A DNA stretch of 52,371 bases, counting the filler, from Porpidia crustulata (taxonomy: Eukaryota), in NCBI GenBank assembly GCA_964255105.1. It is 2 parts of 2 records of this genome, joined end to end, with 100 filler letters (N's around TTAATTAATTAA, not from the genome) between each part and the next. Parts side by side here need not be neighbours in the genome. Positions count along the whole stretch, not along the records: positions 1 to 26,142 come from CAXUWE010000039.1; 1 more part is not named here. One strand, written 5' to 3'. Shown here one piece after another: positions 1,705-26,242 of this stretch. Position numbers and translations under genes: made by a program. How positions within the stretch are numbered: the stretch's first letter is position 1; each line of letters opens with the position of its first letter. The notes under the pieces are model-generated. The model saw nothing but the letters and a program-made list of their open reading frames with translations, was not told the origin of the DNA and ran no database searches.

Positions 1705-4700
1705 ATGGATCCACACAAAAGGTGACATTTGGATATACTAGATGGACCTTCAACTCACCGTCCCACGAATCAAGGAGTTCAGAGATCGACTTCACACCCC
1801 AAAAAGCCAATAGATCCATCTCAGAGACCTTCGATGCATCATCAAAGGATACGAAATATCCAGAGATCTCTGGTTCGAGACTATAATCCATCGTGGCTTC
1901 TAGCTCAGCCAGTGATCGGTAAGTGCAATGACTTTCTTAGTGTTTATATGGGTCTAACGGTTCGCAAAGGTCGAAACCAGATGACGGGCACGCTGAGACG
2001 GGTTTCGGACGTACCAACACGACATTATGTTGTGGATCCAGAGCTATATAATCGTCGTCGAAATAGCCATTATGTACCTATGTCTCAGCCGCCAGACCCA
2101 AGTGCTCAGAATAGCATGGAGCACTACAACATCTATTCAGCAGTCCAGTCACTATGCGACGCCATGAACTCACCAAGGAGGTCGTATAACACAATCGACG
2201 ATGCAGACTTTGTGCAGACTCTTGAGGGTCAAAGTAAGTCAAAATGTCTTTCCAGTTGGGAATTACTGATCCAAAGTCACAGAATATGATTTTAACGATT
2301 CTCAAGTTGCAGGAGGCATTCACTGGGTCCCGGAAGAAGACAACTCACTTGTAAGACGAGAAACTCCTGGCGAAGAATGGATACAGCAGCAACACATGGT
2401 AGAATGGTTCGATCAAGGGACACAATCCAGCTGCAGCACTGGAGGGGTTCGAGGAGATCTATATGAGGAAGCTCCGAGTCTGTCTCTATATGACCGTTCT
2501 TGTGAGCGAAGCCCAGCCGCTCAAGGATGTACTCAGTTACAGTTCCCTGAATCAAAATCTCCCCATGTCGGCATCCCTAATTTTGGCCGGTCTGATTCCA
2601 ATCCAGGAGGCACCCAAGGAATGGAGCACCCGGAATTACAGCAATCAAGACAAGGCCAGAATTGTAAACCATCTATGGTGCGACCAAGTCAATACGAGCA
2701 CCACAATCGGACCGGCGAACTATTCCCCTGAAGTACCACAGGATACATGGAGAGGCAGCTTTGCGTCAGAGTCACGAGATACCCAATCTGAAACGGGCAG
2801 CTCAGGCACGGTCAAAGAAAGCGAGCATGTATCTGTCTCGAGGAAATAACAAGAAGTCGCTCCCATCGGTGAAGTGCACGGCATGGATGCCGAACTGGGA
2901 GTAGGCAACAAGGTCAAGGCCCTCACGAATCGGACAGGCGATTTTTGTGACCGGAATACGTGTCCCTCCTGGCTTTCGAGGAAAGGCAGTGATGACCTAA
3001 AGGATCTTGTCTGGAGTATAATGTCGATAGAGCAGCGAGAGGCTTACTCAACGGAAGGGCTTTCGATGCTAACGGAGATTCAACTACTCGAGCTTAAAGA
3101 GCTAGCGAACGAAAAATACCTAAACCGTGCTGGTATCAATGATCCGGAGCCAGGAGAAAGAAAGAGGCGTCGTGCTGTATATACTGAAGAAATGGTGAGA
3201 GCTAGAGCGGAAGCAGTAGCTCAGCAAAGTTGGCCAAGACGTGAGCAAAAGCGCGAGTACGCTTCTCTCTTCAGCGATGACGAAGAGCAGACTCAGCCCG
3301 TGGCCAACAAGCGACCACGGTCCGACCAGTACTCGCCTTCAAACCAAGAAGTCCCTAGTATGGTTGCTGAGAGCTGCTTTAGACGTGCAAGTGAGCGACT
3401 TAACGCAATCGACGGCGTCTCTGGTGAAAAGCTGGGGTATTCAGAGTTGGAGCATACTGGCCATCAGTACCCGCCATCAGCTTGGCAAGATGTTTTGCCA
3501 GGTGCCAAATCGGGACAATCAGGCAATGGAACACTCAGATCCTATAGGGCTGGCCAGGTTATCAACCTTACCCCTGTGGCAAATCCTGCTGATATTGGAA
3601 GTACGCACAAAGACCCATCAAGCCGTGCAAACGCCTCTCGTATAGGAAACACCTCTTCGCTACCACCTCCACGCAGCTACTCGACTGGTAGCAAGCGACG
3701 CCGCCTGGTATCCGATCTGTCCGTCGAGGAGGATTCCGAGCCAGCAACAAAGCGCCGCGAATTATCTCGGTTTTCTCTAGACGCCAAGGTCCTAGCCCTA
3801 GCATCTGCGTTTGCGACTCTAAGACAGCCACGGAGCCCGGGTCGGCATGTTCGACCCAGCATTGTGTCAGCTCGGGTGCAACGGTCATCCAGAATTCTCC
3901 AGGGCCTATTGGGGCTGACGTCACCTTCGCTTGACAATGGCCACGTTCAACAATCGGGCTTTGACATTGCTGGAAACAATGGGTACATCTCGAAGGCGGA
4001 GAACAATGCCTTTGTCTCTGGCAACTGGGGTGATGAACACAAGCCGTTGTCCAGTAAGCCCAATGTCAAAAAAAAAAAACAAGCCAAGGGGAGCTGAGTT
4101 CAAAATATTCGACGAACTTGAGGATTTTCAAAACGAGCGAAACGCGAAACAAGTACGCACTACTGCCGTCAACATGGAAGTCCCGGATGAGTCGCAAAAG
4201 GAAAATCGTTCTCCTACTCCAGATCTGCCACAGCTCGAGGAATTCTCTGAGCCGCAAAACTTAGCCGTACCCCTTGACCATTCTTCTCCAGAGCTTCCTC
4301 AGCTTGAGGAACCCTCCGAGCAGCAAGACTCCACCACACCTCTTGAAGCTCCAGCGCCCCAAGAAGATACTCCGATAGATAATCCCGCCCCTATCTTCCC
4401 AATGGCGCCAGAAAGCGAGTGGACAGAGCACGTAGCCGTCTGGGAGCTCCTTACCGAACTCAATTCGGCCAAGCACGAAGGAGACAACAAGGAGAACCAA
4501 TCCCTTAGCACCCAGCCCTTCGTCCTCGACTACCGCATCGTGGATCCCGAGACCGAGCACGACAAGATCAACATCGTAGGCGCCTTGTGGTACACCCTCG
4601 CTGTAGCTAAGTCCATGGGGTTCGAAGGATTCGTGCAAACGTCTCCTGAGAAGTGCTACTTTGACCAATACAAGGAGATCCAGGCGGCGTTTGCGAGCGA

Positions 4701-4844
4701 GTGGAAGGTCGCAGACGTTCCGGTGCCGCAGCTGTATCTTTTCGATGCGTGGCACGGTGGTTTGGTAATTGGCCGGCTCTGGAGATTGCGGCTGAGGAGT
4801 TTGATCATTTGGTGTCTGCACTCCCGGAAGGAGCGCCGATTTGA
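1705..4844 (+). pseudogene. Orphan family copy 1 (partial domain A + domain B), disrupted
   Basis: ATG 1705; GT-AG introns 1919-1969 and 2234-2282. The frame can be reconstructed across in-frame TGA 1723, a frameshift in CCCC ~2725, in-frame TAA 2847, a frameshift in the A12 run 4068-4079 and a frameshift near 4760. Contains KALTNRTGDFCDRNTCPSWLSRKGSDDLKDLVWSIM..STEG (domain A tail) and DYRIVDP..ALWYT..KCYFDQYKEIQAAF..W (domain B), which match the neighbouring genes. Confidence 0.7.
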
Positions 4845-6063
4845 CGACATCGGGATTGGGCGCCGGTTTGGGGTTGTCTGTTGGTTTGGTGAGGCGTTTA
4901 GGATGAATTCTACAAAAGCGCTAATGGGTTGCATGAGTCTTGGTTTGTCTTATCTTTTGGGTCTTAAGTCTTGTTCATGGCAGTCTTGTGGATAGGCATT
5001 TGGAAGGCTATTGGCGTAGGGGGGAAAAGGAAAGGCGCATCGGAGTACATCTCTCAATTAGCACATATCTTCCGAATGAAAAAATATACCCGGACTCCAC
5101 TCACCTGTAAACCTGACCAATAAAAGTTCTAGCGTACATGAGTGAATTGACGTGAAAATCTTCACTTCTGCAGTAGTACCCGAGCACTCCCAACCAAACG
5201 CATCTACCCCATTACGCTTTTCATGGTCTCTCCAAAACATGTAAAATGTCTAAATAGATCATAGTAAGAAGTTTCAAAGGTACGCCCGGCAGAAAAAGCT
5301 ACAGTATTTCCAAGTCTATCATAAGCTGCGTAATGGTCGCGATAGAACAGATGGGAAGGAAGTTCCCATCTCAATTTAGAGAATCTTGATGTTGAATTTT
5401 ACGCTGTTTCGTGGGTTCTGGAAAATGTCCTCTCCCAAGTGAAAAAGGGGTTCGAGCCCCTTTGAAGTTATTTCAACGTCGTGGATTCGATCTAGCCTGG
5501 CTGGGCAATCTTGTGTCCATTGAAACCAGCGTAAGAGCTTGCGATTGAAGATGGCCGTCTCTGCTTTTCTCTATGATGATCAAATAATGGGCCTGCCGGG
5601 AGCTTCAGATTCATTGTTTACGCTTTCGCAGGATGAATTCGGTGAGTGGGCCCTAAGTTTGATTGCGAGCAATGGATCCAGGGTGGTCCGTTGCCTTGCA
5701 GAAGATTGTGGAAGGGCTCGAAACAAAGAGGATGAATAGAGAGCCGGGGTCTTACTGAGCGTTGATCCTTCAAAAACTTCTGGAATAGACTGTATCTTTC
5801 TCTAAAATTTCCGTCGTCATGGGTACTAGTGCTGTGATATGGTGTCTAAAATAAAACACCCAACACTGACCAACACATTGTTTTAATTCAACACATCAAT
5901 CTAATGTCTTCCTGAGATTGTACGATAATTTTGCTCGAGCTTGGTCGCGCTGTTTGACCTCGTCGCCGTCGCCAGCTCGTTTCGGAGATCGTCGGAAGTC
6001 GTTCAAAAGATTTTGCTCTGTCGCTGTCGGCATTGCTTGGCCGCAAATTAGTACCAGCACAGG

Positions 6064-8181
6064 ATGAACATTCCAGTCGTGAGACGGCAGCCCGAAACCA
6101 ATGGCTTTCTGGTTAGTCCCTACTCTGAATTCTTCTAAGATGGATGCGATGCAATGCAGCTTCAAGAGTCTAACGACAAGTAGGATACTAAAATCACTGG
6201 CAAAAATGTCTCTAAAAGTAACAAAACTATCAGTAGCAATCACACATCAGACGTAGTCAGCTCGCAAGCGGCGGAAATTTCGGAGAATCATGTATTGTCA
6301 TACAAAGACGATGCAATCAGCCTGCCTGAACCACCAGAGTCAGAAGCTCCAGACGATGCAGGGCACTGGAACGGTAAAGTTGTACTCAACGTGCGAGGCT
6401 CGGCAAGCTCAAATACCTCTACGACAACGGAAGCGTCGTTCGATGTTGGCCGTAGTGATGGTCGAGACAAGGTTAAAGATTCTATTAGCCCAACTTATCA
6501 ACGATCAAATAATCCGAACAATGCTTTTCAGAATCAAAAAGACAGTTCGGAAATACTTGAAGGTACACTGTTCCAGTCAGACGATGATCAGGAGGTCGAT
6601 CTAGACAATCAAAACCTCGCGGCCGCGACAGCTCAAGGACTTGCAAGCATCAGGCAACCGCTTGAATCCCACCATTCTATACAGACGCCCGTGACACAAA
6701 ATGTAGCGCCCCGACGGGGTCCTGAGGTCAAGCCAAAAGGCGAAGTAAGGTTCCATGCTACTGGGATGCAATATCGAGAGTCGGCGAGCATGAGATGGCT
6801 CCCAGCTGTATATCATTACAATCTGAGGTCTAAGTTTATCACACAGTCATTTCGTAAGGGCGAGTACCGGTTTCCAGATCCGGAGGGAGAAGGCTGGGAT
6901 GATAAGACGAGCTTCCTCATGGAGAATAAAGACTGGGGTCCAGCTTGGCACCAACGTCCCGAAATCTTACGACGCTTCGCTCGAACCGACTTGCCCGTCC
7001 CAACGGACGAGCCAGTAACTCTGAATGACTCTGGACGTGTGGTGATTGATCAAGAAAATCATGCTATCGCCGGTTGGAAGGAGCTTCCGCTTTGTATCTC
7101 TAGCAAGGTACCCGGATATAAAATGGAAGCATGGAGGCGTTTGAATCCGAAAATCACTATCTTCGATTTTATGGCTAGGATGCCAAAGTCAGACAGGCCA
7201 ATGACCACCGACAGGAATAAGCTTTCGATGCGGATGACACGTTTCCGACTCAGGGCAGCTTGCATCTCTTGGGTTGAAAGAGAAGGTTGTTGGGAAATTA
7301 AGGAGCACATCTCCAGCCTCATCGGACCCACGTGCGTTGCCGAAAATTCAACAGCTGCCTTCGGGAGAGACCTGACCGACTCTGAAATCCGCCAGGCCAC
7401 CGCGGGTAACAAAGGCAAATTCCCACGACGTCGTCGTAAGAAAAACAAGCTCAGAACTCGAGTGCAAGTCACTGGGCCAGAACAACATTCTCTGGCCATG
7501 GATACCGACAAAGAAGATGACGTAGTGAAAATTGAAGATGAAGGAAAAAACAATGGTTTGGGTGGCCGTGTGCGCAGGCGACAAAAAATGGAGGAATCTG
7601 CGGTCATGGCGGAAGCTCAAGGCGTTGGGGGCTCTCGAGCACCATTTTCTCGTCGACGTAAAAATAAAGCGTCCTCATTTGCAGGTCCGGCTCCGCGTTT
7701 GACAAACACTCTTCGACCACAACAGAACTTGCGTCACTTTGCGCCTCGACACCAAGATCTTCAGGGCCAGGGAAGAACCATCAGCGCCACAACGGAACGC
7801 TCTCCCCAGTCTACTTCCCGCGCCGAACTTTTCCCCGCAATCAATTCTCAGCAGCTCGCATGCGAGGTTCACCAGCAGTTCTCGCTTATTGAAGCCGAAC
7901 ACCAGTATGTTCCAGTACCATCGGATCCCCGATACCTGGAACCTCGCAACATGGCCGAAGCGAGTAGTATACAGCGAGCTTTGGAATATACTCGAAGAGA
8001 TTTCGCGGTGCACTTCGCTGAGGAGGCACCCCTGACAGACACCCGAAAGTGCTACGCATACCAGTACCACGAGCTTCGAGATGCATTCGTTCGCCGTTGG
8101 CCTTATCCTCCTCCCGTTCCGCGACCAGATTTCGTTGAAGATTGGGGCAGCACTGTCATGGAATGGAGGAAATTCGTGTGA
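6064..8181 (+). CDS. Orphan family copy 2 (domain A + domain B), apparently intact
   Basis: ATG 6064. Intron 6112-6183 (GTTAGT...CTAAC...TAG) removes two in-frame stops and joins the frame of the 628-aa ORF 6295-8181. Domain A ~6736-7440, domain B ~7924-8166, low-complexity linker with basic NLS-like runs (RRRRKKNK). Confidence 0.75.
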
Positions 8182-9330
8182 GATTTACAACCGCACACGA
8201 CCAAAGAAGGTAGCTTCTTCAAGTGATGGTTTCGAAGGCTCCCCGCTCATGGATGGAAGTTCGCTTTTGACTTCGACATAGCGCGGAATATTTCAGTTGC
8301 TGGAGTGGATGTATGGTCTTTTTGTATTTCATTCGAGCAGTAGGATTTGTAGAGACAGAAAACGGCGTGGATGTTCAGCGCTTGACACGACTATTCCAGA
8401 GGACAGTTGTAAGAGGAATCTATGTAAAGAGCATGTCAAGCGGTCTCAAGATCTTCGTTCTCGTCCATGAATGTGGTCAGCAAGTACAGAAGGTACTGTT
8501 CAAGGCAATAGAAAAACGAAGGATTAATCACCACGCATTCGTTGTCTCGTTCATTACTTTGACACCCACAACGATTAGGTAGTATGAGCCAAAATCATTG
8601 ATGGGTTTCAATGGGTCACTAACCATTTTGATGGATGAGAATTTCATGCCTGCTAGACCGAGTGTTTGGGTCATCGCCGTCACTCCACACCATCAGTCAA
8701 GATAATTTTGTTAGTATGGTTAGACCGCCATCAAGTTCTGAGCGAGGATATTACGTTGCCGTACTCATTGTAAACTTTTCATCTTAAGTTTTACTAGCTT
8801 GTCCATGCAAACGACGAAGTCATTGTCCCGAGAGATGGCGTACCTAATGTTCAACTTTCATCCTTCATATGCAACACATCCCAACATTTTGCCTACAACA
8901 CGCAGCAACACGTCTGATCTTCAAGGTGATCCAATGTCTTCATGACATCCCAACACATGGATTCACTCAGTATCACAATTGACAATCATCCGGCCATACA
9001 CAACAATGCTCCTAGCACCTCGCATCTCCTCACTCTCTCATATATATGTTATTTTCTTCTGTGTTATATATTCTTGATTACTTCAACGTACCAACATCTT
9101 GATGATATCTTTTTGCGTTGCAACCGCCACAAAAAGTATCACGATCAGACTTTGTCAGAGTACTTAACCATCCCGATTATCTGAATTAAAATTCGAGCTC
9201 GAGCTCTTACTTTCAAGTACCAGACGTCTTCCTTGGGTAATTGGAGCTGGGCCCAACGCGCAGGCCTCGACACAACATTAGCGATAGCTCTCCCAGCATT
9301 GTGGCCGGAGCCATACCACCATCAACGTTC

Positions 9331-12300
9331 ATGAAGGGTCGTGCGGGTAGTGACGTGAGTTAATACATTACGCTTGGATAGAAATATGGAAGAAACTGAC
9401 GGTACTTATCCAGATTTCAAAGAAACGTGGACCTAAAAAAGCGGACACTCTGAGACACCAACAACGGCAAGAGTATACGCCTCCACTGGGATATCATCCT
9501 GCTGAAGGAAACCCCCCGGATTGGGTTGGGGGTCCTACCCTAACAATGGCGGAGATAAACAGAAGTGAGTCCAATACCCTTCTCTCCAAGCAATATGTTG
9601 ACAGTATCTAGATAGAGAGATCGAAAATGACAATGAGTTAGCGCTGCTTCTCGGTGATTACAATCGTGAACATGCCAATGCGGCTCTCCAGAATGTCGAT
9701 CCGCACAATACGGTCATAGACTCCACTCTCGATGTCAATGGCCGGATATCACCTCGATTGGAACGTATACCATCTCCAATCATCGAGGAACAGTTCACGG
9801 CAACTCCAGAAAGCGTTGACCCTGAGAGTAAGTACCAGCGACCCTAGACACATTGCATATACTGACAGATTATAGTGATCAATGTCACGAATTTCCTATC
9901 TCAAGATACGCCCTTGGTGTCGATCACCAATCCATTCGATCCTGCCGGGGGAAGTCATCCAATCTCAGCATCTGGTCTCCGAGATACGGTTACCCAAGAC
10001 TCTTCAATTGGTGGTGTATCTGACCCGCCAAGTTGGACAGACGACAGTGATACTACGTCAACGAAACCCTATCAAGGGACAGCAAGCGAAGACGTTGCAC
10101 ATGAATCACGATTGGCCTCGCAACATCTAGTCGAGCCGATTCTCCCAAAGTTCTCGATTGGTAGTCCTCCCATTATTGAGAGAGAGGCGTCAACGCAAGA
10201 TAGATGGAACAGCATTGCTAATCGGCTTCCAAATGTTCAGGAGCAGGTTCGGCCAAGCCTTCCAAATTTATCTGTGAAGAATACTCAACACTCTTGGCAT
10301 TCAAGCCAAGTACAACAAAGCTCTAGTGTCTCTGCCTTTGAAAATGGGACTGTTCTTGAAAGACGACCGAGTGTCAACTTAAGCCATGGAAAGCATATCA
10401 ACCACCCTGTGCTGAATAGGCCAGTGTCCGCACGCAAACCCTTGCCACAGTCACCAGATTTGCTTTCCCACCCTATCTCAAATCGCATAGTTGAAAGTAC
10501 AGCAGACTATGGTGCACCGAATTCCATACAATACACCTGGAATGTCATTGAGGATCAAAATGGGTGCTTCTCTGATCGAGAACTAATCAAACGCCCAGGC
10601 CAGCTGGACTACGCACAAAGACCGTCTTCACCTATTGAGGGCAATTGGATCGATACGACTTTGTACCCAGTACAACAAGGCCATCGAAATGAAACAGTCC
10701 GGAGCTCCAGACCTCCCGTTCGAAGACGCGGAGGCGCAATCTCTCAAGATCTTCCTTTGCAGAGTGTTGAGGATATCAATGCTAAAGGAGAATCTGACGA
10801 ATCTGACGAATCTTATGAGGAGTTCTCTGAATCCATACTATCAAGGGAAGTGTCAACCCAGACCGAGCATCATACGGGCGCATCAGGCCGATGGCAGCCA
10901 GGAAATGTCTTGAAAGGTCGGACCCGGACAGTACGTGGAGGCTTGGAATACCGTGGGAATAAGGGATGGGGTGAGCCTCTTTCTACTCCTCAGAAGAAAT
11001 AAAAGAGCTAAGTTTTCGTAGAGTCTGCTGTTCGTCTCGACGATATACGAGGTGAGCTTCGTCGATTCAAAGAGAATCAAGGAACTTATGGTGAGTCCGT
11101 CTTTTCTCTAATCACAATTCTTTTGTTAACAAATAGTAGATTATAAACGACCCAGAGGCAAAGGCAAGCACGATGTAACATGCTACCATCAAGCCCACAA
11201 AAGCTGGGGTAAGGAGAGAAACCAGCGACCAGAGGTCCTGTTTCGGCTCGAGCGAGGAAATCATAGCGTGCCGCCGTATAATCCTCCTCCCTGGTATCAC
11301 CGAGATCGGATTGTCCTGGACCTTGACGATAATCCAATCGAGTGCTGGCATGAGATTCCGTTGGTCTGTAGCTCAGACATGGAAGGCTGGGAGCTCGAAG
11401 CTATCACCAGAACCAATACTGCCATATCTCTGAGCGCAATAAGAGCTCGAATGCCATCAAGAATATGGAAAGGCGGAAAGATGCGCGATCTGTACAGCCT
11501 TAACACACTCCGTATGAGAATGAGTCGATTCCGACTGCAGGCAGGCTTAACGGCTTGGAATGAGCGGGAGGGCACTCGTCAGATGAAGGAAGAAATTTCA
11601 AGAATCCTTGGGCAAGAGTGTATCAGAAAGAACTCTACTCGCCCATTTGGAAGAGACCTCACGGCAGCGGAAATGGAGAGAGTCAAAGCCCAGAACAAAG
11701 GTACCGCCCCACAACGCTCGAGGAAGGGGCGATTAGCAAACCATGACGACGAGTTTGATGAAGACTCAGATGGTCGTGCCCATGATCGTGAACGGGACGG
11801 ACTGGATTCGGAATCAGAAGAGGACGTCTCTTCCAAAAATCCCACAAATGCCTATTCGCAAACAAGCCGGAACAGTCCAGCGCGTTTTATACATAGCCAT
11901 ATCGCTAGTGTTCCAGGATTTCTTTCACGTGGCAACATGGACCACAATCTTAAACGTACGCGGCATTGGGTGGCGGAAATCAAAGATGAAGAGTCCGATA
12001 ACGAGGAGCCCGGCTTGCCTGTGAAGCGGCGTTATGTCACACAATCCCGAGTACGGTCGGATCAAACAACAATGTCTACTAGAGGAAAATCGAAGCATGT
12101 ATCCCCGCTTGAAGGTCACGGAATGCCGTGGGCGCATCGAGAGTCCTACGCTCATGCTCCGCCTCCTGGTAGTCAACGTCGAGACACTATCGACCAGCGT
12201 AGAGCCCGGGTGCAAGCAAGGTCTCTTCTGCCCGCACCCGGTTATACTGTCAGGGCACTGGGACGGAACTTTGCGTCCAGCCATTCCAGAAATCAGGGGC

Positions 12301-12839
12301 AACGTGGTAGACTCGTTCAGTCTCTTTTGGATTACTCCGAAGATGAACTCAAGGAAGAGATGAATTCAGTTGCAAATGACGTGCCTTACCAAGCCTCATC
12401 GACGCTGGCAAATATTCAATCCGTAGCTACGCGCCCAACCCTACAAACTTGGACAGATCCAATCCTCCGCAGAGAACCGTCAGGCAATGAGAACTTGGTC
12501 GTACCTTCGCGACAGACAGGGCTGCATCTCTTCAAAGAAGCGAGCTTCAATCAAGTGGACCCAAGTGCACAAGATGACGGAGGTTACAACCCATTTGCTG
12601 TACTATCGGCAAGTGATAGAGTGGAGCAACTGCAAACTGCGACTAACTTGGGTAGACAAATATCAGAGTCTGATCAACTTGATTCTAGTCTTACTAGTGA
12701 TATGTTAGGCGAGGATGTCGATTTATCCGCCTTCCAGGTACCATCAGATACCTTCTTAATGCAGGGTCTTATAGGAGACTCTGTCCCATTAGACGATCAA
12801 TCTCAGTACCAGCAGAGCCAAGGCCTTGATGTCCTCTAA
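9331..12839 (+). CDS. Orphan family copy 3 (domain A; truncated before domain B)
   Basis: Exons 9331-9354, 9414-9564, 9612-9827, 9876-10970, 11022-11090, 11140-12839 all have GT-AG borders and keep frame. The spliced product aligns with copy 2 (SWGKERNQRPEVL / DWGPAWHQRPEIL; RMRMSRFRLQAGLTAWNEREG / SMRMTRFRLRAACISWVEREG; FGRDLT in both). Confidence 0.75.
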
Positions 12840-13170
12840 GGAACAAACACTGGTCTTTGGTCTGACGGAGCTCGAAAGGACAGTTTTGATAATGGAAGTA
12901 GTGATCCGGACTGTGACTTTCGCTGCAAAGAACTATAGAACGCGACGGACGAAGTTGGTATTCAAAGAGGGCTTTCATTTACCCGCCTGGACTATCAAAA
13001 AAGCTTTTTGGTGGCTACACGCCTCCAAAGAACCCAAGTGAGGGATCATACGACTTCCGGTACACATTACTGAAGCGAGAGTTTGACAGAATCTGGCACT
13101 TACAATAAGAGCCACCACCAGCACTGCATTGCTTTGACAATCGATAGCGTTCCTCACTGACTGGCAAGTC
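12840..13170 (+). pseudogene. Decayed domain-B coding tail of copy 3
   Basis: Reading through TAA 12837 gives DFRCKEL*NATDEVGIQRGLSFTRLDYQK, which matches DPRYLEPRNMAEASSIQRALEYTRRDF of copy 2. A frameshift follows in the A run 12997-13002, then further stops at 13106 and 13145. Confidence 0.7.
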
Positions 13171-14993
13171 CTCGAAACTGCCGGTATATAGGAGAAGAGT
13201 CAGTGATTCAAAAACTCAACCTCTATATGAGTTTCAGGGGGAAACGAGTGAAAGAAATATGGCATACCACCACAGACCCACAAATACAAGCGCCACTTAC
13301 GATTGAACGATTTCGTGGGGTTTCGGTTTGGATTTCGGGTTATTCGGTTGAGTATGTGTCTGATGTTGGATATGGTCCACCAAATCTGGCAAAAGGACTT
13401 GTTTGAGTACTGGAGATATCTTGGAATACATATTGAAATATCATTTCCTTCCAACCTACAGCGGAATACGACATTCTTGTTTTTACATACTAGAAACTTT
13501 GTTACCCGTGAATATTGCCTGATTAATAATTAAACGTTCTTCATATGTAAATCTTGTTGATGATTTGTGATTGCTCGCTGTTCAAGAACATTTGCATCTT
13601 CCAGTAGCCCAAAGCCTTGGTCAGCCTTATGGGAAAACCGCATGCTACTGAGAATTACTAAGGTAGATTGAACGTCCTTGGCCATTATCTTAATTCGTCA
13701 ATCGTCAAAATGTCCTTTCCATAAGTTCAGATCGAATTGTACGCAAAGGATCTTGCATCTGCACGTGTAGTGATAGGGGTACCTTTGGGTTGTGTTGAAG
13801 CCTGCAGGAATATAAGCGTAAACACTATTCGCAATATACTCCATCGTCTAAGCGTTCTAGTTTCGATCTTTCTATGAAACTTACTCGGGGGTTACCACTG
13901 GGACCAACTGCAATGCCATCCGACCCATCTATCTGATGTTACGGCAGCTTCAAAGCGCTATCATAATGACCTTCTGCCATTGGTAGAGAATTAAAAAGGT
14001 GCAAGCGATCAAAAAGGCCGTCGAATGAACAAATTCACTGTTTATTACACCCGTTGAGATTGAAGCCGGAAGTTCCCAACTAGGTCTGGGCGAAACCCGA
14101 ATATCCGGACTAGTAATTGATGAGGGATTGGATATCTATTGTCAGGGTAAGTCTTTCAATATATCCTGGTGAAAGGGCTCGGCGAGAAGCTGGGGCGTTT
14201 GTATGAACAATGTCCGGAGAGCAACTCCTAGTGTATCAGGGCAAGCACATGATTTTGAAGACTGATAAATTGCAGTAGCTCGTTCAGCGAAAGCGCCTTG
14301 CGCGAAATAAGGCCAACCCCTGGATATTAGGGGAAACTTATCAGCTCCTAACACCAACCTTCATGCAAACTTGTCTATCAAGATTGGTCGAGAGAATCAA
14401 TCTACACAGAGTCGACTAAGCCCCGTATTGTGAATTCGAACGACGGGATTAGGGACCTTCCTATTCGCGAGAACGTCTAGTCGACTTTGACGGATAGCGG
14501 ACAGCGTCTTGAGCATGCTCGAAGAGAATATAGATCTTTAATGCAACACCAGCACTATTCCGGGCAAAAAGTTTTTCAAATCCCACTCATATCCATACTA
14601 CAACCGCCTTTGGACAGCTCATGGACGGGAATAATTATTCGATCCAGGGCTTAAAGAGACACAAGAAGTTGAGTAGCCTTTCACAGAACGGAGCTGATGG
14701 TCCGGGAGCGGCTCATGCCCAGGATTATCGAAGGGTTGTGACCCCTAAGAGTCCTCCAAAAAGGAGCACAGTGTGCAAGCGCATGGTTGGGGGTGCACAG
14801 AGCATAGGAAGTCAACTTACTGTCTCTTCTGTGCGCATGAGGCGTGATGGAGGGGACATAGGCTCGATTCTAGATAAAAATAATATCCGCAATTCTGAGA
14901 AGGTATCAAAGTCAACCAACACCACATCACGTGGAGCTGACACGATGATGATAGGAAATAAATATTCGGCGTAGGGTTGGCAATTTTCCATTC

Positions 14994-16037
14994 ATGAACC
15001 GCCTAAATGGAAGCCGAAAAATTCCAATGTCATCAACGGATGTTGAAGATCTTCGTAGATTTGGGTATCTGCCAGGTTGCGACAAAAGAGACCCGAACCT
15101 CGTTTTTTCATTCCATAAATCTATGACACAGAACGCCTGCCTGCCGCCGAGTCCCCTTGGTAGAAGCTTTTCTCAATCCACGACCACCGCAGCACGAGAT
15201 GGTCGCACAATTAAGCCCTCCGATTGGGGCGAAGTTCTCTCACTTCAAAAAGCCTTGGAACCAACGCGTCAGAGCTTCAGCGCACTAAATGGCCGTCCAG
15301 CACCTGCGCCTCAGCTCTGGGATAATTACGTTTCCCAGTGGAAAGCTCTTGATAAGCATTCGAAACGTTTCTGGAACGCGGCCAAGCGTCAAGGCCAACG
15401 TCCACATCTAGTAGCGCTGAAACGTTGGTCGGGGCGGATTCAGGATTGGGAGTGTAATCAAGCTTGGATTACGCAGGAGATAGAATGTCCGTATAGATGC
15501 GCACAGCTCGACTCCACTCTCGCGAATCAGCAAGTGCTGCGAGCTCACCAATTCCACGAGAGCGCTGCAAAAGAGCTTCGTCAAGCATTTGATACAGATC
15601 ATTATGAGCTCAAGGAAGATACTTCAGTGAGAGGTCTGCCCCAAGAGATAGAAGTCATCGAGCCTATCAAAGACATATTGGCAGATTCCGTGTCAAAGGA
15701 TCCACAGGCCTTTGCATCATGGCTCGCCACCAAGGGAGCAGAGCACTACAGTCAATATGCTCAGATGCAACACAGTCTATCCTGGAAAGATTTCAGCTCT
15801 TGGTTGGCTCCATCTCGGTATGAATATGAATCAAATCCTGGGAAGGCGTTGAAGCCGGGACGTATTTATCGGGCCTCCGCGTTCGATGATCAGGCCCCGA
15901 TTGCGAGTATTGAAGAGGCGTATAGGGAAGTTATTAAAATAGTGAACGCAATTCGGACCAGAGACGTTTTCATGGGAACGAATGGCAAACGAGAAATTCA
16001 GGAAGCCAATGCGATCCAGCAGAAAATCCGAGATTAA
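14994..16037 (+). CDS. Orphan family copy 4 (domain B plus a unique C-terminal region); 5' part uncertain or decayed
   Basis: 347-aa ORF containing DGRTIKP..LQKALEPTRQSF..NYVSQWKAL..FW..PHLVALKRWSGRIQDW, the same residue pattern as domain B. Upstream ORF 14621-14974 is in a different frame and may be a broken N-terminus. Confidence 0.6.
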   Translation: MNRLNGSRKIPMSSTDVEDLRRFGYLPGCDKRDPNLVFSFHKSMTQNACLPPSPLGRSFSQSTTTAARDGRTIKPSDWGEVLSLQKALEPTRQSFSALNGRPAPAPQLWDNYVSQWKALDKHSKRFWNAAKRQGQRPHLVALKRWSGRIQDWECNQAWITQEIECPYRCAQLDSTLANQQVLRAHQFHESAAKELRQAFDTDHYELKEDTSVRGLPQEIEVIEPIKDILADSVSKDPQAFASWLATKGAEHYSQYAQMQHSLSWKDFSSWLAPSRYEYESNPGKALKPGRIYRASAFDDQAPIASIEEAYREVIKIVNAIRTRDVFMGTNGKREIQEANAIQQKIRD

Positions 16038-16650: not shown

Positions 16651-18240
16651 ATGGATACCGAGCATCCTAACAAGTGGACTCCTACGTCGACTGCGTCCTT
16701 GATTCTCCCAGCGGCGTCTCAAAATCTCTCAAAAACACTCTCCTCTTTGGATCACACTACGCTCTCAATCACCAATCGTCTAACTTCTATACAACATGAC
16801 TCAATCATTGTACAGAAAATTGCCGAGCAATGTAGCCTCCCTCTCGTTGCAAATGAACGCTGTGGAAGCTGGTATATACCACCCGAACTCAAAGCAGGCA
16901 ATGTGTATTTCAAGAGCACAGACGGGCATATACTACAATGGAGCTTCAGTACCAGAAGGCTAAATTTGCACGCACTCAGACTCATTGGTGAGCGCCATGG
17001 GTATGGTCAGCACTCTGGATTGGAAATTTAGTGAACTTTGGTCGATGACTGGTGTTACCGACAATCTAGGTGCATCATAATCGACTCCACACGACGTGGG
17101 AAAAGTATGCCTGATGCACTGTCGAAAACAGTCCCTATCTGGTGTACTGTCATCAATCGTCTTCTTTTTGCCGACATGCCTACATCACATCAGCTTCTCA
17201 TACCAGAAGATATTGTCGGACCATCAGAACAGAGTCAGATCGAGGCAAAACTTGATAGTTTTGTTGCTAATGCGAAGGTGCGTGCCGACTTTTGTAGACA
17301 GTCCCTCGAAATGATGGGCTAAGGACTCAGGCTCTACGCCTTGATATCGCCTCTTTGCGATTATCACTTAAGAAACCTATTCGTCCGTCGTGGGTTACGC
17401 CAGCCACCTCTCTACTACTACCCTCCTCTGATTTTGAAGGCTTTCATCCAGTGATTTGCTGCACTGCTTCTCGACGTGTCGAAGGTGCGGAAGCGTCAGA
17501 AAATGGGTACATACAAGGTGCTGGGGACGACAATGAAGCTTGGGCTTGCGGGCTTACGCCACACATATTTTGGCAACACCGGCATCATCTTATGTCTACC
17601 GTCGAAAGAGAACTCCCGGGGCTTATTCGAAGCCTCCTAGACGTCGATCAAAATAGCGCCAAAGGCAGTGCTGCTGTGCCTTTAGACACCGCTCGTACCA
17701 TATCCATTAGTACTCTGGGCTCAGCCGTGTTGCGAGATTTTGACGGTGTAATTATTTGCAGCAACCAAGAGAACATTCTAGAGTCTGAAGCCATCAAATC
17801 TCCTAAAGATGTTCTCAACCTCCAATGCGGGACCGGCAAACTTGGCAGTCGCGCCCTTCGAAGAAAGTTGCCTCTTGTGCCTACATTTGTCTCTGCACTT
17901 ATAGCTCGGAAACAAACTCCTAAAATCCTTGTCATTTGCCCTACTGGCACCGACCTTGCCATTGGAATAGCCTTAGTGCTGCTCTGCCTCTATTTTGACG
18001 ATGACCGTAAGCCTTAACTTACACTACTGCTTCTGTGAAAAACAGGCCCGACTATGCCACATATGACTAACGTGTTCTTCTGCCGTAGGTAATTTTGTTT
18101 CTCATGTACCGGATAATCCAGTTGATAAACAATTCATCCGCCGCCGCCTCGCCTGGATTATGACTGCAAAGCCTGATGCCAATCCATCGCGTTCAACATT
18201 GCAAGCTGTAAACTCTTTTCTCATGAAACGCCCTTCATAG
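16651..18240 (+). CDS. RIT1: tRNA A64-2'-O-ribosylphosphate transferase
   Basis: Motifs LVANERCGSWY, YFKSTDGH, IIDSTRRGKSMPDALSKTVPIW, YIQGAGDD, NPSRSTL. Exons 16651-17000, 17070-17277, 17331-18006, 18089-18240. Confidence 0.95.
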
Positions 18241-20673
18241 GATAGACCCCAACCTCCTAGGAGACTATGAAAGTGGAAGTTTCAGAGATTGGACTAATCG
18301 AGAGGGACTCCATGGCAATTTGAGTGAGCAGCTTGTAACAAATAAATGGATAGTGGAGCTGCAATGCAGCAGGCTTCGATTCAGTAATGTAGGAGCTGTA
18401 CCCAAAAATGGAGGAATGGTCTGCATGGAAATTGAACGACTGGGTTCTCAGCAGTATGTGAATCAAAGCAGGTACAAAATACCGCAAAGCTGTCAATTCT
18501 CTGTAAGCACTCAGTACACACCATGATGGTGTACATAATTTGCACGAGCCCGGCCACTTTCCTTCAGAGTCAATCAACAGAATAGGCACCGGGCACGATG
18601 AATCTCATAACCATTCAGCCTACTGGGTTTGTTTGACCATCGACGTAGCAGAATCCTTCGTGCGCTCGAAGATGATTACAAATAGGGTTGAATTTAAAAG
18701 CGACCAATGTTGTTAAACAGTCCCACAAAGATATGTTACCAACCGTTTCGCGATTTCGTTTAAGACGGAAGTGCCTCCTCTCATATACATTTACAAAAGC
18801 GGGCGCAATGCCTTCCTCGGCAATTCATTCAGAAAACATCTTGTTGAAACAGAAGCACCAATTGTTTTCAATCCGTTCTTAGTTCCAATCATTTGATCGC
18901 AGCTTTCACTGAAATGCATCTTACTTGTCGCTGCTCCCTTACTTTGTCCGTCCACATTGGGTTTCCTGGAACCACTAGACCCACGATAACAACTGAGATG
19001 GCAAGATTCGAGAGGAGGTGCGTGGTGGAGCTTTGGGACGTGATAGAGGAACTTCCGGCTGACGCAACAAATTCGCTTACGTTATTTTAGAGTGGAAGAA
19101 TGCTCGTATATCGCAATCCGCTATTGCACATTAAATGACAAGCATTCGAAGCTCATATCAGCAACATATAGAGGCTGGGAAGCGTTAGACAACACAAAGC
19201 GGATCCGTTTGTTATGTGTAGAACCTCAGAGAGATAGAGGGAGGGCTAGCAGGAAGCTGAATTCTAGGAGGTACGGTATAGTGAACATGCATGAAAGATT
19301 GAGCGCCCTCGATGAAGGTTTGCATGTAGTCTCTCATCTGGAATTCAACACCATAACAGTTTTCTATCTTCTGTGGCCCTCCAATCATAAAGCTTAGCAT
19401 TCCTCGTTGGCTACACCGTGTCACTTCCGCACAGTGAATCTGCCCAAATCATCCTCTCTCTTCCTCTGTAGCAAATCTTTACGCTCCAAAGTGACACTCG
19501 AGCAGCTCAACTCGTCTTGACGTAGGTGACGGTACAACTTCGCCATGTGTGGGACAGAGCCGCACTTGGGCCGCGACTATGGTGCTGACCCTTGCGTTCC
19601 GTCTGCAGCATAGACCTCAAACTCAGTTCTTGGTTGGGAGCCCATTGTCTTTGCGACCACGGGACGCACAGAAGCTTGATTCTTAGTTCATCATGACAAC
19701 GTGGTAATGGGAGGACTTGAGCAGGTGAGAGCAGACCCTGGCGCTCAAATAGGCTAGAAGGTGTCACGATATCGGCCTAGGTGTCGTGATTGTGTTGTCT
19801 AATTACACTAAACAATACTCCGCAAAGTACCTCGCCCGCCAAGATAACAGCCTAAGCAGCGCTAACGATTGGTCTCCCGAGCATTTGGAAGACCCACCCC
19901 ACGATATCGCCCCCAATCTCATCGAGAGGAACAAGATCAGACTATGCCCATCCCTGTACATTGCAGATGCCTAGACGCCTAGTACCAGAAAGGATAGGAT
20001 CAAATTTCACACAATTTGGATGGTTTGCGCAAGCCACGGCTTCCATCCAGGATATGACGAGAAATAATCATGGGTCCAACAGGATGATGACAAGGTAGAG
20101 CGACCGTTATCAAGATGACACACATCAACCTGACAGATTGCACAAGATGTCAAATTCAAATTGTCGTTCCAGACCGAACTTCATACGCAAGGAAGCTGCC
20201 GGTAAGCAATCAAAATATGATTAAAAGAATAAATGATAATCTTATCCTTAGTTATAATTTGACGATTCAAAGGACTTAATATTTCCCCAATCGGACACGT
20301 TCCTTCCCCTCCCCCCGGCTCAGAATCTGAAGCTCTGTGAATGCAAGGCCCGGCTCGGCGAGATCCTGTACGGGTCATTAATTAATCAGCTAAGCATATG
20401 ACATGGATCACTACCAGGCCATCTCGAGCTACACTACCTACCTGGTCGACCTAAGTAGACCCTTCCTAAATAACAATAATGCCAGAACCAAATCTTCCAG
20501 ACATCATCATCTACTCGCTGCTGGACCAACGGTCTCGTGCTTTCTTCCACTTGGTATTGACAGACTGAGCTCCCCGCATCACCACTCCCCCACCTCTCAA
20601 TCGCACCTGCAGCTGGAATATCAACCGAAGCTTCCCCAAAGCTGAATATTGCACCTTTGCAGTCAATTGCATC

Positions 20674-22504
20674 ATGCAGAATGAGTCCCTCCACCCGGAT
20701 GGACCTTCCGCAAGAGCGGAAAACTTTGCACGATCACCAACCAGCGAGAGTGCCCCGAGGCTGAAGGAGTGGCAAGAGGTCACCACGGTTAGCCAGCCGT
20801 CGTCAAGCACCTATGCGCCGTCAATATCCACACAAAAACACAGTCCCGGTAACAATGCCATGCTCACAAATGGCGTTGCCGACTTTTTCAGTCCAGAAAT
20901 TTTCCAAATCGTGCTCCACAACCCAACAACGTCTCACCAACTTCTCAAGTTCAGCCAATCGCGCTTCTGTGGAGAGAATATGGAATTCTTGGACAAGGTT
21001 GGTAATTCTTACATTATGGCCTCAGCCCTCGACGGCATAGCTGATGATGACTCAACTGGAAATAGGTCGATCGCTACAATACCTTACTCGATGAATTGAC
21101 CAAGGTCATGTCCGAAATTTACCGCTCCTTTACTTCCTCCGAAGCTCCACGGCAATTAAACCTCTCCCAAGGTATAATGAAGACGATGAACATGGATATC
21201 AAAGAGACGACTCTTACAACGCTACCTGCGATGGAACTCATCTTCTCAGATGCTCAACAGTGTATAGAAAACGTGCTGGCGACAGACATATACCCCCGCT
21301 TTGTTAAGCATCAGATGACGGTGAGCGCAGAAAGGGCGCTAGCGACGAGTCGAACTAAGTTTGGTGGCTTGGGAGATTGCTTCTGTCTAACAAGCCCCTC
21401 GTAAGAAAATCCAGCATTACAGTTGTACGGTATCTGCGCATGTAGGCTAACGACGTATAGAAAAGCGGACAATCCGATCGTATATGCTTCGGATGGTTTT
21501 GTCAAAGTGACGGGGTATTCCCGATCTGATATTATCCCTCGAAATTGTCGATTTCTCCAAGGGAAATATACAGATCAGTCTTCGGCAAGGCGTATCAAGG
21601 AAGCAGTACAGGCAAATTTGGAATCCGTCGAACTTTTACTCAATTACAAGAAAACCGGGGAGCCGTTCTGGAATTTGTTATATGTTGGTACGGCATCATG
21701 GTTGATTCTCTAAATGTGGATGTCTCAAAACTAAACGAGCTAACGAATGACACAGCACCTTTGTTCAATTCGGAGGGTAAAGTAGCTTTCTTCTTAGGAG
21801 GGCAAATAAACTGCTCAACCACGATACATAATCGCTCCGACATTTTGAGGGCATTGTCCTTGTCTGACGACCCCATCGATGAGAACATAGAGTTCAGCTC
21901 ATCAGCGTCAATCAGCCAAAACGAAGCTGCCAAGAAGCGAGGTTTCTTCAGGAGCCTCAGAATGCGGACTAGCAGTAGCAGAGGCGATGATAGGGAAGCT
22001 GGTATGGAAGCAGAATTGATGCAAAAGATCGAGAAAGTGGACTTCAAGCAGCAGATGAAGATGTTCTACACTGCTTACTCCAAGGTATGGGTAATCTCTT
22101 ATCTGATGGCTACGCCAGTCGTTCAACGCAGTTGCTAACAAAATCTGCTTCGATTTTAGTATTTAGTCCTTGGCTACGACAGTATGTCAATCGAGTTCTA
22201 CTCATCAGACGTGGTCGACATGCTCTTGATTGACCCGAAGAACGATACGACGTTCGTGGGTAACAGCATCTTCAAGGTACTGACGCAATATTCGCCGAAC
22301 ATGCCTCGAGACTTCAAGAACCGAGTCAAAGGGTCATTGAAAATGGGACGGGCGGTGTCCGCGGACATCAGCCTTGCAACGCGGCGCTCCGTGGTCAACC
22401 GAGGCAGCGAGAAGTTCTCCACGCATTGGACGCCGCTCAAGGATGAGCATGCGAATGTGCGATGCGTGGTCGTTCTATTCGCTCCTTTGAACCAGGAGTG
22501 GTGA
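20674..22504 (+). CDS. RGS-LOV-DUF blue-light photoreceptor 1 (BcLOV4-like)
   Basis: Exons 20674-20997, 21066-21400, 21461-21687, 21756-22084, 22160-22504. RGS-like region (CGENMEFL..QLNLS..DIYPRF); LOV domain DNPIVYASDGF..PRNCRFLQG..LNYKKTGEPFWNLL..GGQIN; polybasic KKRGFFRSLRMR helix; PAS-like C-terminus ending HWTPLKD. Confidence 0.9.
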
Positions 22505-24020: not shown

Positions 24021-26142
24021 ATGATTGCTGCTGCAAACCGTCAGAGTGTCGTCATCGACGGACGGCAAGTACCCACGTACAACGGGACCGTGTCCTATCT
24101 GCGTGGTTCTCCAGCATCACCGGATACTGGCGTCCCCTTTGTCACACAACGCGCACGACCGAACTGGCCTGTCGACAATCCGTTGGCGCAAAATCCTCCA
24201 GTCCCGCCGAAACCGTCGGTGTCGCAAAGGGTGGAGGAACAACCACGAAAATCCGGAGAGCGTCAAGTCCCAGCCGTCGACTCGCACCGCCCTCAACCAC
24301 AGGCATCGTTATTCACTTCCCAGACAGCGTAAGTGGGATGAAGAACTTCTTCGAACGCGACTGATTGGTATAATGGGGTAGTCAACAGGATAATTGGCAG
24401 CCACCGAGGCGCACCAATGGCGCGTCCGACTACATCCCTACCCAAAATGGCTCGTTGACGCATACGAACGGAGTGCCCGAGAGTAATCATCCTTCAGCAA
24501 AATTCTCACAACAGAATCCTCCAGAGTCAAAGGATAATGATGGCCGAGGACTTGAAGATCGGTTGGAAGACTTTGATTTGGCAGCACCGATCGAGGATGG
24601 CGGCAAGCTTGAGTCTCTGGAGCAAACCTCCGACTTACTCTTCTCCGGTGCCCATATGGAGACTATCTTTGCTGATCCATCCTTTCTTCTCAAATTCATG
24701 TCATTCCTACGGGCCCATCGACCTCAATCCGTCCCCACTTTGATGTACTATCTCGACGCCAGCAAAGCATTGAAAGCGATTCACTATGCAAATGCAGTTG
24801 CAGCGGCGTTGGAGCCATTACAAGAGCAAGGCTTGATACCTATACAGGAAAATACGAGGAATTTCGAACTGGAGCAGAGGGCGGGGAGGGCATTCAACCT
24901 GCTGGTTCAGGATGATCTGCCAGCCTATGTGACGCTTCTGTATATCCAGGTCGCGAAATCGAACATCAATCCATCGACAATGGCGGGACAGCCGAATGTA
25001 CAGGAGACTTCTGCAGGTTTTGCCGAAGTGTTTTGTTTGACGGATCCTTCTAGACCGGATAATCCTATTGTGTTTGCTTCAAAAGGTATGGTGAGATTGG
25101 TACGGGTGCTAGAACTTGCTAATGATGGATCAGCTTTTCATAGTATGACTCAGTACAACATGAATTATATTGTTGGTCGAAACTGTCGTTTCTTGCAAGG
25201 CCCGAAGACGAATCGTTCCAGCATTGATCGGATACGAGACGCGGTATTGGCTGGAAGAGAGCATTGCGAGGTCATCCTCAATTAGTACGTACTGGCTTCG
25301 ATTGCTGCGAACCTATGCTAATCGACATGCAGTCGCCGCGATGGATCACCCTTCCTTAATCTACTGATGCACGCACCTCTACGAGACGGCACCGGCAAGG
25401 TCAGATACTTCATGGGGGCTCAGATTGATGTCAGCAGCGTGACCGATGTCAGCCCTGAGCTGCAATCTCTACAAAGGATCATTGCGAAAATGGAGCGTGA
25501 GCAGAACCCAGAGGATCCAAAGGCAACCGATGAAGTCGAAGAAAAGAAAGGTGAATTCCAACAACTGGTGGAAACGTTGGATATGCAGGAGTTGAAAGCT
25601 GCTCGGACGTGGCAAGGCCGAATGCTTCAAGAAGGACCTGAAGGATCGATAGATTCGGATGCAGCCAAATGGCAGAAGTCACCATTACATACTAGGGACC
25701 CATCATACGATGTCGTGAAAGATTACAAAGGAACATTGGACAGTCTGTACAATTATGTAGGTTACTGTTCTCCAATTCCGAGTAATTGACTAATCCCTCA
25801 GTTCCTCCTCGTCCGCCCTTATCCCTCTCTACGCATCCTCTTCGCCTCCCCTGCCCTTTCTGGGCCCGGAATCGTCCATGGCCTTGTCATGGATAAATTC
25901 CGCGTCAACTCCCGTATCCGTGACGAACTCTCGCAAGCACTAATCGAAGGCCGCGAGGTCACCGCCAAAGCTCTTTGGATCCCTCACCACAACGAAGAAG
26001 GTACCAACAAATGGATCCACTTCACCCCGTTGTTCGGCAGCAAAGACCAAGTCGGAGCCTGGATGGTCATCCTCGAAGAGTACAACCCCGACAGCCCGCG
26101 AAAGCCGAAACAACAAAACCCCCCCTCCAAACACGCCAACCC
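24021..26142 (+). CDS. RGS-LOV-DUF blue-light photoreceptor 2 (3' end lost in the gap)
   Basis: Exons 24021-24328, 24382-25085, 25134-25284, 25333-25756, 25802->26142. LOV domain EVFCLTDPSRPDNPIVFAS..GRNCRFLQGPKT..LNYRRDGSPFLNLL..GAQIDVS; C-terminal LLVRPYPSLRILFASP..WIHFTPL. No stop codon before the N gap. The RGS-like N-terminus is more diverged. Confidence 0.88.
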
Positions 26143-26242
26143 NNNNNNNNNNNNNNNNNNNNNNNNNNNNNNNNNNNNNNNNNNNNTTAATTAATTAANN
26201 NNNNNNNNNNNNNNNNNNNNNNNNNNNNNNNNNNNNNNNNNN
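26143..26242. other. Artificial contig-joining spacer
   Basis: Exactly 44 N + TTAATTAATTAA (stops in all six frames, 26187-26198) + 44 N = 100 nt. Confidence 0.95.

Follow-up and report, generated by a model that had tools for sequence, protein, structure and literature searches.

What kind of system is formed by four tandem genes that have only two compact, unrecognised modules in common? This question is raised by a stretch of 52,371 nucleotides from Porpidia crustulata (assembly GCA_964255105.1), here called the window, whose positions 1-26142 correspond to contig C39 of a 22.9-Mb fungal assembly comprising 2,447 contigs. Four paralogues, all on the + strand, occupy positions 1705-16037. 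A first-pass annotation described them as orphan genes made of two modules, A and B, and proposed either a birth-and-death conflict locus or a set of lineage-specific nuclear regulators. Their analysis reveals a real, undescribed two-module family, which is larger and more stable than this first reading could see. The second of the two options is supported, the first is not, and the family most likely functions in the manner of nuclear regulators expanded in one lineage, with domains for which no solved structure gives a match.

Two modules shared by an extended gene family

The four co-oriented genes resemble each other only in the two modules, A of about 240 and B of about 90 amino acids, and both shuffle tests and profile searches bear out the original proposal on this point. 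Module A is whole in copies 2 and 3, whose alignment reaches a score of 352 that is attained by none of 200 shuffled controls (BLASTP: 39% identity, E 1.6e-34). It is partial in copy 1, where the remainder is not significant in the pairwise shuffle test and becomes clear only with the family profile (E 1.3e-12). Module B occurs in all four copies. That of copy 2 is linked to those of copy 1 (score 77) and copy 4 (score 78), with 0/200 shuffles reaching either value, and more weakly to the decayed module B of copy 3, located beyond the stop codon of this gene (score 47, reached by 3/200 shuffles). The linkers are unrelated between paralogues, in agreement with the initial description, but partly conserved between orthologues. 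The features of the array are the following:

1705-4845, + strand: copy 1, a pseudogene derived from an A+B gene (in the orthologue, a single open frame of about 1,210 codons)
2910-3173, + strand: remainder of module A in copy 1, the C-terminal 88 codons or so (52% identity to P0117 over 87 amino acids; copy-1 clade)
4507-4770, + strand: module B of copy 1 (shuffle test and profile; 43% identity to the orthologue)
6064-8181, + strand: copy 2, A+B gene of 681 amino acids, modelled as 6064-6111 joined to 6184-8181 (orthologues P0002-P0012)
6112-6183, + strand: candidate intron of copy 2, 72 nucleotides, GTTAGT..CTAAC..TAG, containing two in-frame stops
6724-7449, + strand: module A of copy 2, 242 amino acids (AlphaFold model; conservation)
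7915-8178, + strand: module B of copy 2, two helices and an extended Pro/Trp tail (AlphaFold model; alignment)
9331-12839, + strand: copy 3, six exons, 1,084 amino acids, module A complete, ending before module B (62.5% identity to the orthologue over 208 amino acids)
9331-9354, 9414-9564, 9612-9827, 9876-10970, 11022-11090 and 11140-12839, + strand: exons of copy 3, separated by five GT-AG introns
12900-13141, + strand: decayed module B of copy 3, with stops at 12936 and 13106 and a frameshift near 13003
14955-16037, + strand: copy 4, last open frame (42% identity to the orthologue over 348 amino acids)
15189-15455, + strand: module B of copy 4
about 15480-16034, + strand: conserved region specific to copy 4, about 190 amino acids, after module B (orthologue comparison)

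These genes are by no means orphans. The profile of module A recovers 1,712 clusters at 50% identity with E<=0.001, and 366 at 1e-30. Among the best 150 of these 1,712 clusters, which served as the set of relatives, 72 also carry module B, and B is located after A in 95/95 proteins possessing both among 184. A-only and B-only genes coexist in the family, and one protein, P0035, has two A modules, the first of which is partial. The relatives with organism names, found among 26 proteins looked up by name, come from nine species. Four of these, for which the taxonomy was checked, are Lecanoromycetes belonging to four orders and two subclasses; the other five are presumably also lichen fungi of this class.

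The genome of P. crustulata itself contains at least six more members arranged in three pairs (on contigs C113, C302 and C366), hence at least 10 genes. The tandem pair L011/L012 (C113:8527-14923, - strand) consists of an A+B gene of 593 amino acids and a B-only gene of 875 amino acids, located between an MBOAT gene and an isolated C-terminal fragment of a helicase (5768-6424). The two other pairs (C366:9950-14638 and C302:1228-9000, - strand) belong to an intron-rich, more distant A-only subfamily. On C366, which also carries PAK kinase and acyltransferase genes, one copy has an in-frame TGA at a position where the others have Trp.

The modules are indeed unrecognised, as first stated, with neither a meaningful Pfam match nor a solved-fold match. 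The copies of the window have no Pfam match, like 145/150 relatives at E<=0.01; the five remaining relatives have short or sub-threshold matches to YL1, TAF1C_C (three proteins, about 45 residues each, one of the three above the cut-off) and Peptidase_C48. Searches with sequence profiles of the PDB gave only low-complexity matches or matches with E>0.2, PHROGs matched 0/7 proteins, tblastn against phages gave nothing meaningful, and the ESM Atlas returned only unrelated bacterial clusters with low recognition. Longer B-bearing proteins were absent from the 2112-5000 amino acid range, the only one searched. Literature searches on lichen or fungal gene families, which motif-level or supplementary mentions would escape, showed no description of this one. 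The expansions set out in a Cladonia genome study include HET, ankyrin, membrane, kinase and polyketide synthase families, none of which resembles the A/B family (PMC6652019).

Old orthogroups beside RIT1 and decay of single copies

The array is followed on its 3' side by a gene outside the A/B family, identified by Pfam, which provides an anchor for synteny:

16651-18017, + strand: RIT1 (initiator tRNA phosphoribosyl transferase), first three exons, undisrupted (PF17184 and PF04179; spliced model; same neighbour in relatives)

A metagenome scan led to eight loci, all found through copy 2. Seven of them, about 98% or more identical, come from one species, and L039 comes from another. The order of the four genes is kept in 6/8 loci, the two others being too short, and RIT1 follows the array in the four loci inspected. 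In a FastTree phylogeny of 192 A sequences, copy-1, copy-2, copy-3 and C113-type sequences form clades with supports of 1.0, 1.0, 0.91 and 1.0, respectively. Paralogues share 30-46% identity and orthologues 64-72%, and the position and order of the array are fixed across species that are 35-40% diverged in module A. The copies are thus old, stable orthogroups beside RIT1; together with the lesions described below, tree and synteny agree with the earlier view of an old and clustered family in which single copies decay.

Five further records contain three or four members each, on contigs of equal size (58584, 43040, 39533, 26913 and 24346), and three of the five include the C113 type. In addition, the intron-rich type and the array genes have three contig sizes in common (153501, 322308 and 621843). 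Because members share contigs of identical size, the family would be located in one chromosomal region. No overlap that would directly join C113 to the array contig was seen.

The four copies do differ in state in this genome, as had been noticed, but this reflects mostly recent decay, since in a relative with the same gene order beside RIT1 neither copy 1 nor copy 3 is damaged, each having both A and B. Copy 1 does carry multiple lesions: an in-frame stop (2847-2849), an in-frame deletion of about 170 codons by which the first two thirds of module A disappeared, a frameshift located between 3971 and 4097, for which a run of 12 A (4068-4079) is the candidate site, and a second frameshift near 4755. 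In copy 3, A is kept and B lost, as reported; the latter is found past the stop at 12837, split between two reading frames and interrupted by two further stops. Its two halves are 58% (33 amino acids) and 57% (47 amino acids) identical to module B of the nearest orthologue. As this is about the identity between the working B of copy 2 and that of its own orthologue (60%), copy 3 appears to have lost B recently. Module B is also missing in 4/12 other copy-3 records, for which an unspliced intron could account.

Copy 4, which had been considered as B-only, does possess B, and no trace of A is found for it in the window. Nevertheless, its B is followed by the conserved module of about 190 amino acids, and its orthologue in the relative retains an A remnant of 46 codons (E about 5e-4) ahead of B. 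The stop codon of copy 4 occurs about 23 residues ahead of the end of this orthologue.

Copy 2, described as intact, is so only if positions 6112-6183 are spliced out; otherwise, two in-frame stops interrupt it. This 72-nucleotide stretch has good splice signals. In 11/11 orthologues, its counterpart is a conserved sequence free of stops (YFEDAYxAM), and the matching donor is weaker in the eight loci whose DNA was compared. Since the following in-frame ATG of copy 2 falls inside module A, splicing is its likely rescue and the gene probably survives only by this means. The segment would then have arisen by intronisation or be an exitron. Intronisation of coding sequence is rare in fission yeasts, according to one account (PMC3629103), and copy 2 may be a rare and datable case of coding sequence becoming an intron.

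Several other causes of these lesions were considered. RNA editing is rejected, the stops of copies 1-4 not being aligned to Trp and being accompanied by frameshifts and a deletion. Assembly error is unlikely because the adjacent RIT1 is undisrupted. The only sequencing run covering the stretch has 0 differing letters; it is possibly the source of the assembly itself and therefore not independent. A general loss of sex is not supported, Spo11, the MAT alpha-box and Mnd1 being stop-free in the short stretches matched, which makes a weak test. The MAT alpha-box match (C2:32368-32736) is of MAT1-1-1 type.

Selection on the family is purifying, with outer copies dispensable. The ratio of non-synonymous to synonymous substitution rates (dN/dS) of module A is 0.18-0.24 in three comparisons between species, rough values given that dS (1.1-1.7) is near saturation; it is 0.15 for RIT1, 0.36 for copy 4 and 0.53 for module B of copy 2 (82 codons). 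Within the related species, copies 2 and 3 together harbour, in their two modules, 10 synonymous versus 1 non-synonymous variants, and module A of copy 1 harbours 13 synonymous and 9 non-synonymous variants, including one stop. No other copy is as polymorphic as copy 1 in this relative (synonymous polymorphism, pS, 0.02-0.03; ratio of non-synonymous to synonymous polymorphism, pN/pS, about 0.5). The few loci available for one species, a small sample, have alleles that are 98.2-100% identical. Nonsense alleles of copies 1 and 4 occur at locus L037. Compared with L036, to which it is about 99.9% alike in coding sequence, L037 shows four changes, all non-synonymous and located in copies 1 and 4, including two CA-to-TA nonsense changes. 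The 3 kb upstream of copy 1 (L036:900-3800) show up to 74 differences per kb between isolates versus 0-24 per kb in the array, without a strong bias of the type due to repeat-induced point mutation.

Two close paralogous genes are found further along C39, at about 20569-22135 and 24374-25786 of the window (+ strand), and contain LOV/PAS-like segments (41% identity over 82 amino acids, E 3e-14). The LOV label is tentative; single exons have no Pfam match at E<=0.01. The second contig of the window, after the N linker (26143-26242), opens with a few CCCTAA telomere-like repeats.

Possible functions of the modules

AlphaFold models both modules as well-folded domains (A: predicted local distance difference test, pLDDT, 95.3, and predicted template modelling score, pTM, 0.90; B: pLDDT 93.8, pTM 0.82). 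In the model of module A, a first half made of loops and beta-hairpins precedes a three-helix core (131-140, 146-151 and 160-177), whose third helix is long and Arg-rich, and three more helices. Module A has a median net charge of +8, positive in 91% of 147 sequences, and a median isoelectric point of 9.4; residues 121-190 alone carry +7. Within this region, R139, R152, R173 and R175 are 93-99% conserved, R170 86% and W183 90% (148 rows). The motif K[KR]x[KR] is present in 121/150 proteins, versus a mean of 60 (maximum 68) over 20 shuffles, and a hydropathy window detects a membrane-like segment in 0/150 relatives and a hydrophobic N-terminus in 1/150.

Because module A is basic, its arginines near-invariant, import-like motifs enriched and membrane segments absent, we favour, with modest confidence, a family of nuclear regulators that bind nucleic acid and possess a detachable interaction module. 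The basic three-helix core would be the part of module A that binds nucleic acid, with DNA or chromatin as the most likely target. Nuclear import would depend on the Lys/Arg stretch that follows, and the long disordered arms would serve as activation or scaffold regions. Module B would mediate protein interactions from the C-terminus, as a unit that some genes lose and others carry alone. This old family of lichen-forming Lecanoromycetes would have grown by tandem duplication, its products being soluble, and its anciently diverged copies would persist as distinct orthologues whose roles, perhaps at some stage of development, overlap in part and are not essential. Such partial redundancy would allow single copies to decay in single lineages, as in this genome. 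Fungal three-helix DNA-binding domains include the Myb/SANT, homeodomain and Clr5-type domains. The A/B proteins would resemble these regulators by a basic core of three helices, the last of them rich in Arg, and by import motifs, disordered arms and paralogue expansion. They differ from them by the absence of any sequence or structure match, by a core placed inside a 240-residue domain and by a second, unique module.

Several observations weigh against nucleic-acid binding by nuclear proteins. Foldseek finds 0 matches at E<=0.001 in the PDB for A, as for B, and the best VIA-align hit of A in the PDB is poor (Z 3.5, root-mean-square deviation 4.2, 57 aligned residues), residues 1-183 being barely tested. 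No helix-turn-helix, Myb or homeodomain protein matches A structurally in these comparisons, which used the whole module. Positions specific to orthogroups are not enriched on the long helix (2/15 versus 6/24 in helices 1-2), and a divergence of DNA specificity among orthogroups is not supported. Basic motifs in disordered regions are weak predictors of location. Lastly, many invariant Asp, Glu, His, Thr and Asn residues could equally form an active site or buried salt bridges. Foldseek also gives 0 matches at E<=0.001 for A in BFVD. Module A is likely to be a new fold, of which such blank searches are no proof. The best VIA-align hit of B in the PDB covers only the helix pair (Z 4.2, root-mean-square deviation 2.1, 50 aligned residues). 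Prediction of an A + B complex, alignments not being used, gave no answer (score 0.00).

The possibility of an active site would make of module A an enzyme or a cofactor-binding domain of unknown fold, whose substrate could for example be nucleic acid or chromatin and which B would regulate. It draws on H31, R35, D60, T62, R75, S126, E135, D148, N208 and E221, which are near-invariant (86-100%) in a rigid 240-residue domain. We nevertheless regard it as rather improbable: D148 is replaced by Ala in the copy-3 orthogroup and by Gln in the C113 orthogroup, and neither PDB profiles nor Foldseek, VIA-align or Pfam provide a match to an enzyme fold or family. An origin from a transposon protein, whose DNA-binding part would have been domesticated and then tandemly copied, seems very unlikely. 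Ulp1-peptidase and helicase domains can be carried by fungal transposons, and P0155 shows a weak Ulp1-peptidase match behind A (20.1 bits for a cut-off of 20.7), while the helicase fragment adjoins the C113 pair. Yet no transposase family is found in the 150 proteins, and low copy number in this genome, stable synteny and introns also argue against this origin. Any further reading of the family deserves scarcely any credence.

The wtf proteins of Schizosaccharomyces are membrane proteins, unlike the A/B relatives, which are moreover under purifying selection. The resemblance to wtf nevertheless contributes to a further explanation, a conflict system (spore killing, allorecognition or another kind of cell-death module) in which A would be the poison, B or a spliced isoform the antidote, and old copies would persist as suppressors. 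Like wtf, the family is a multigene one with pseudogenes and possibly an isoform pair differing at the N-terminus; the optional in-frame N-terminal segment of copy 2, deduced here from DNA only, recalls the two transcripts, poison and antidote, reported for wtf4 (PMC5478261). Frequent decay (copies 1, 3 and 4 here, the stop in one C366 gene, the L037 alleles), the A-only and B-only genes side by side and the polymorphism of copy 1 point in the same direction. Clustering and frequent inactivation are also known from het/NLR allorecognition genes, but neither HET, NACHT, NB-ARC or repeat domains (Pfam) nor divergent allele classes, among the small sample of seven loci of one species, are found here, whereas het genes are described as generally under balancing selection (PMC11138114). 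Like the Spok drivers of Podospora, the A/B genes form an ascomycete multigene family that diversifies by duplication and combines separate modules in one protein; unlike Spok blocks, reported to change position between strains, the array is fixed across species (PMC6660238). Kinase and nuclease domains are likewise absent from the 150 relatives and the window copies, and copy 3 retains an intact A despite the loss of its own B. The pattern of selection differs from that described for het genes and mobile Spok blocks, and the birth-and-death conflict locus initially put forward appears unlikely.

Significance for lichen-forming fungi

The nuclear regulator reading can be extended, more tentatively and with considerable doubt, to a bolder proposal. 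Module A would represent a new type of fold for binding nucleic acid and would be the hallmark of a large family of lichen-fungal regulators, whose members lie within one region of about 100 kb or less. Their output would be tuned by B, in cis or in trans from B-only genes, and by an optional spliced activation segment, and they could form a dedicated control system for a lichen trait, for instance the development of the thallus or of the fruit bodies. In Xanthoria parietina, one report gives no annotation for 55% of thallus-upregulated and 171/250 apothecium-upregulated genes (10.1101/2024.08.16.608140); unannotated fungal families are common, which tempers the significance of this one. The A/B family nonetheless offers two domains that are well folded and clearly delimited, occur in four orders of Lecanoromycetes and are open to expression, structure solution and lookup in RNA data. 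If the proposal is true, a new fungal DNA-binding fold would interest both structural and fungal biologists.

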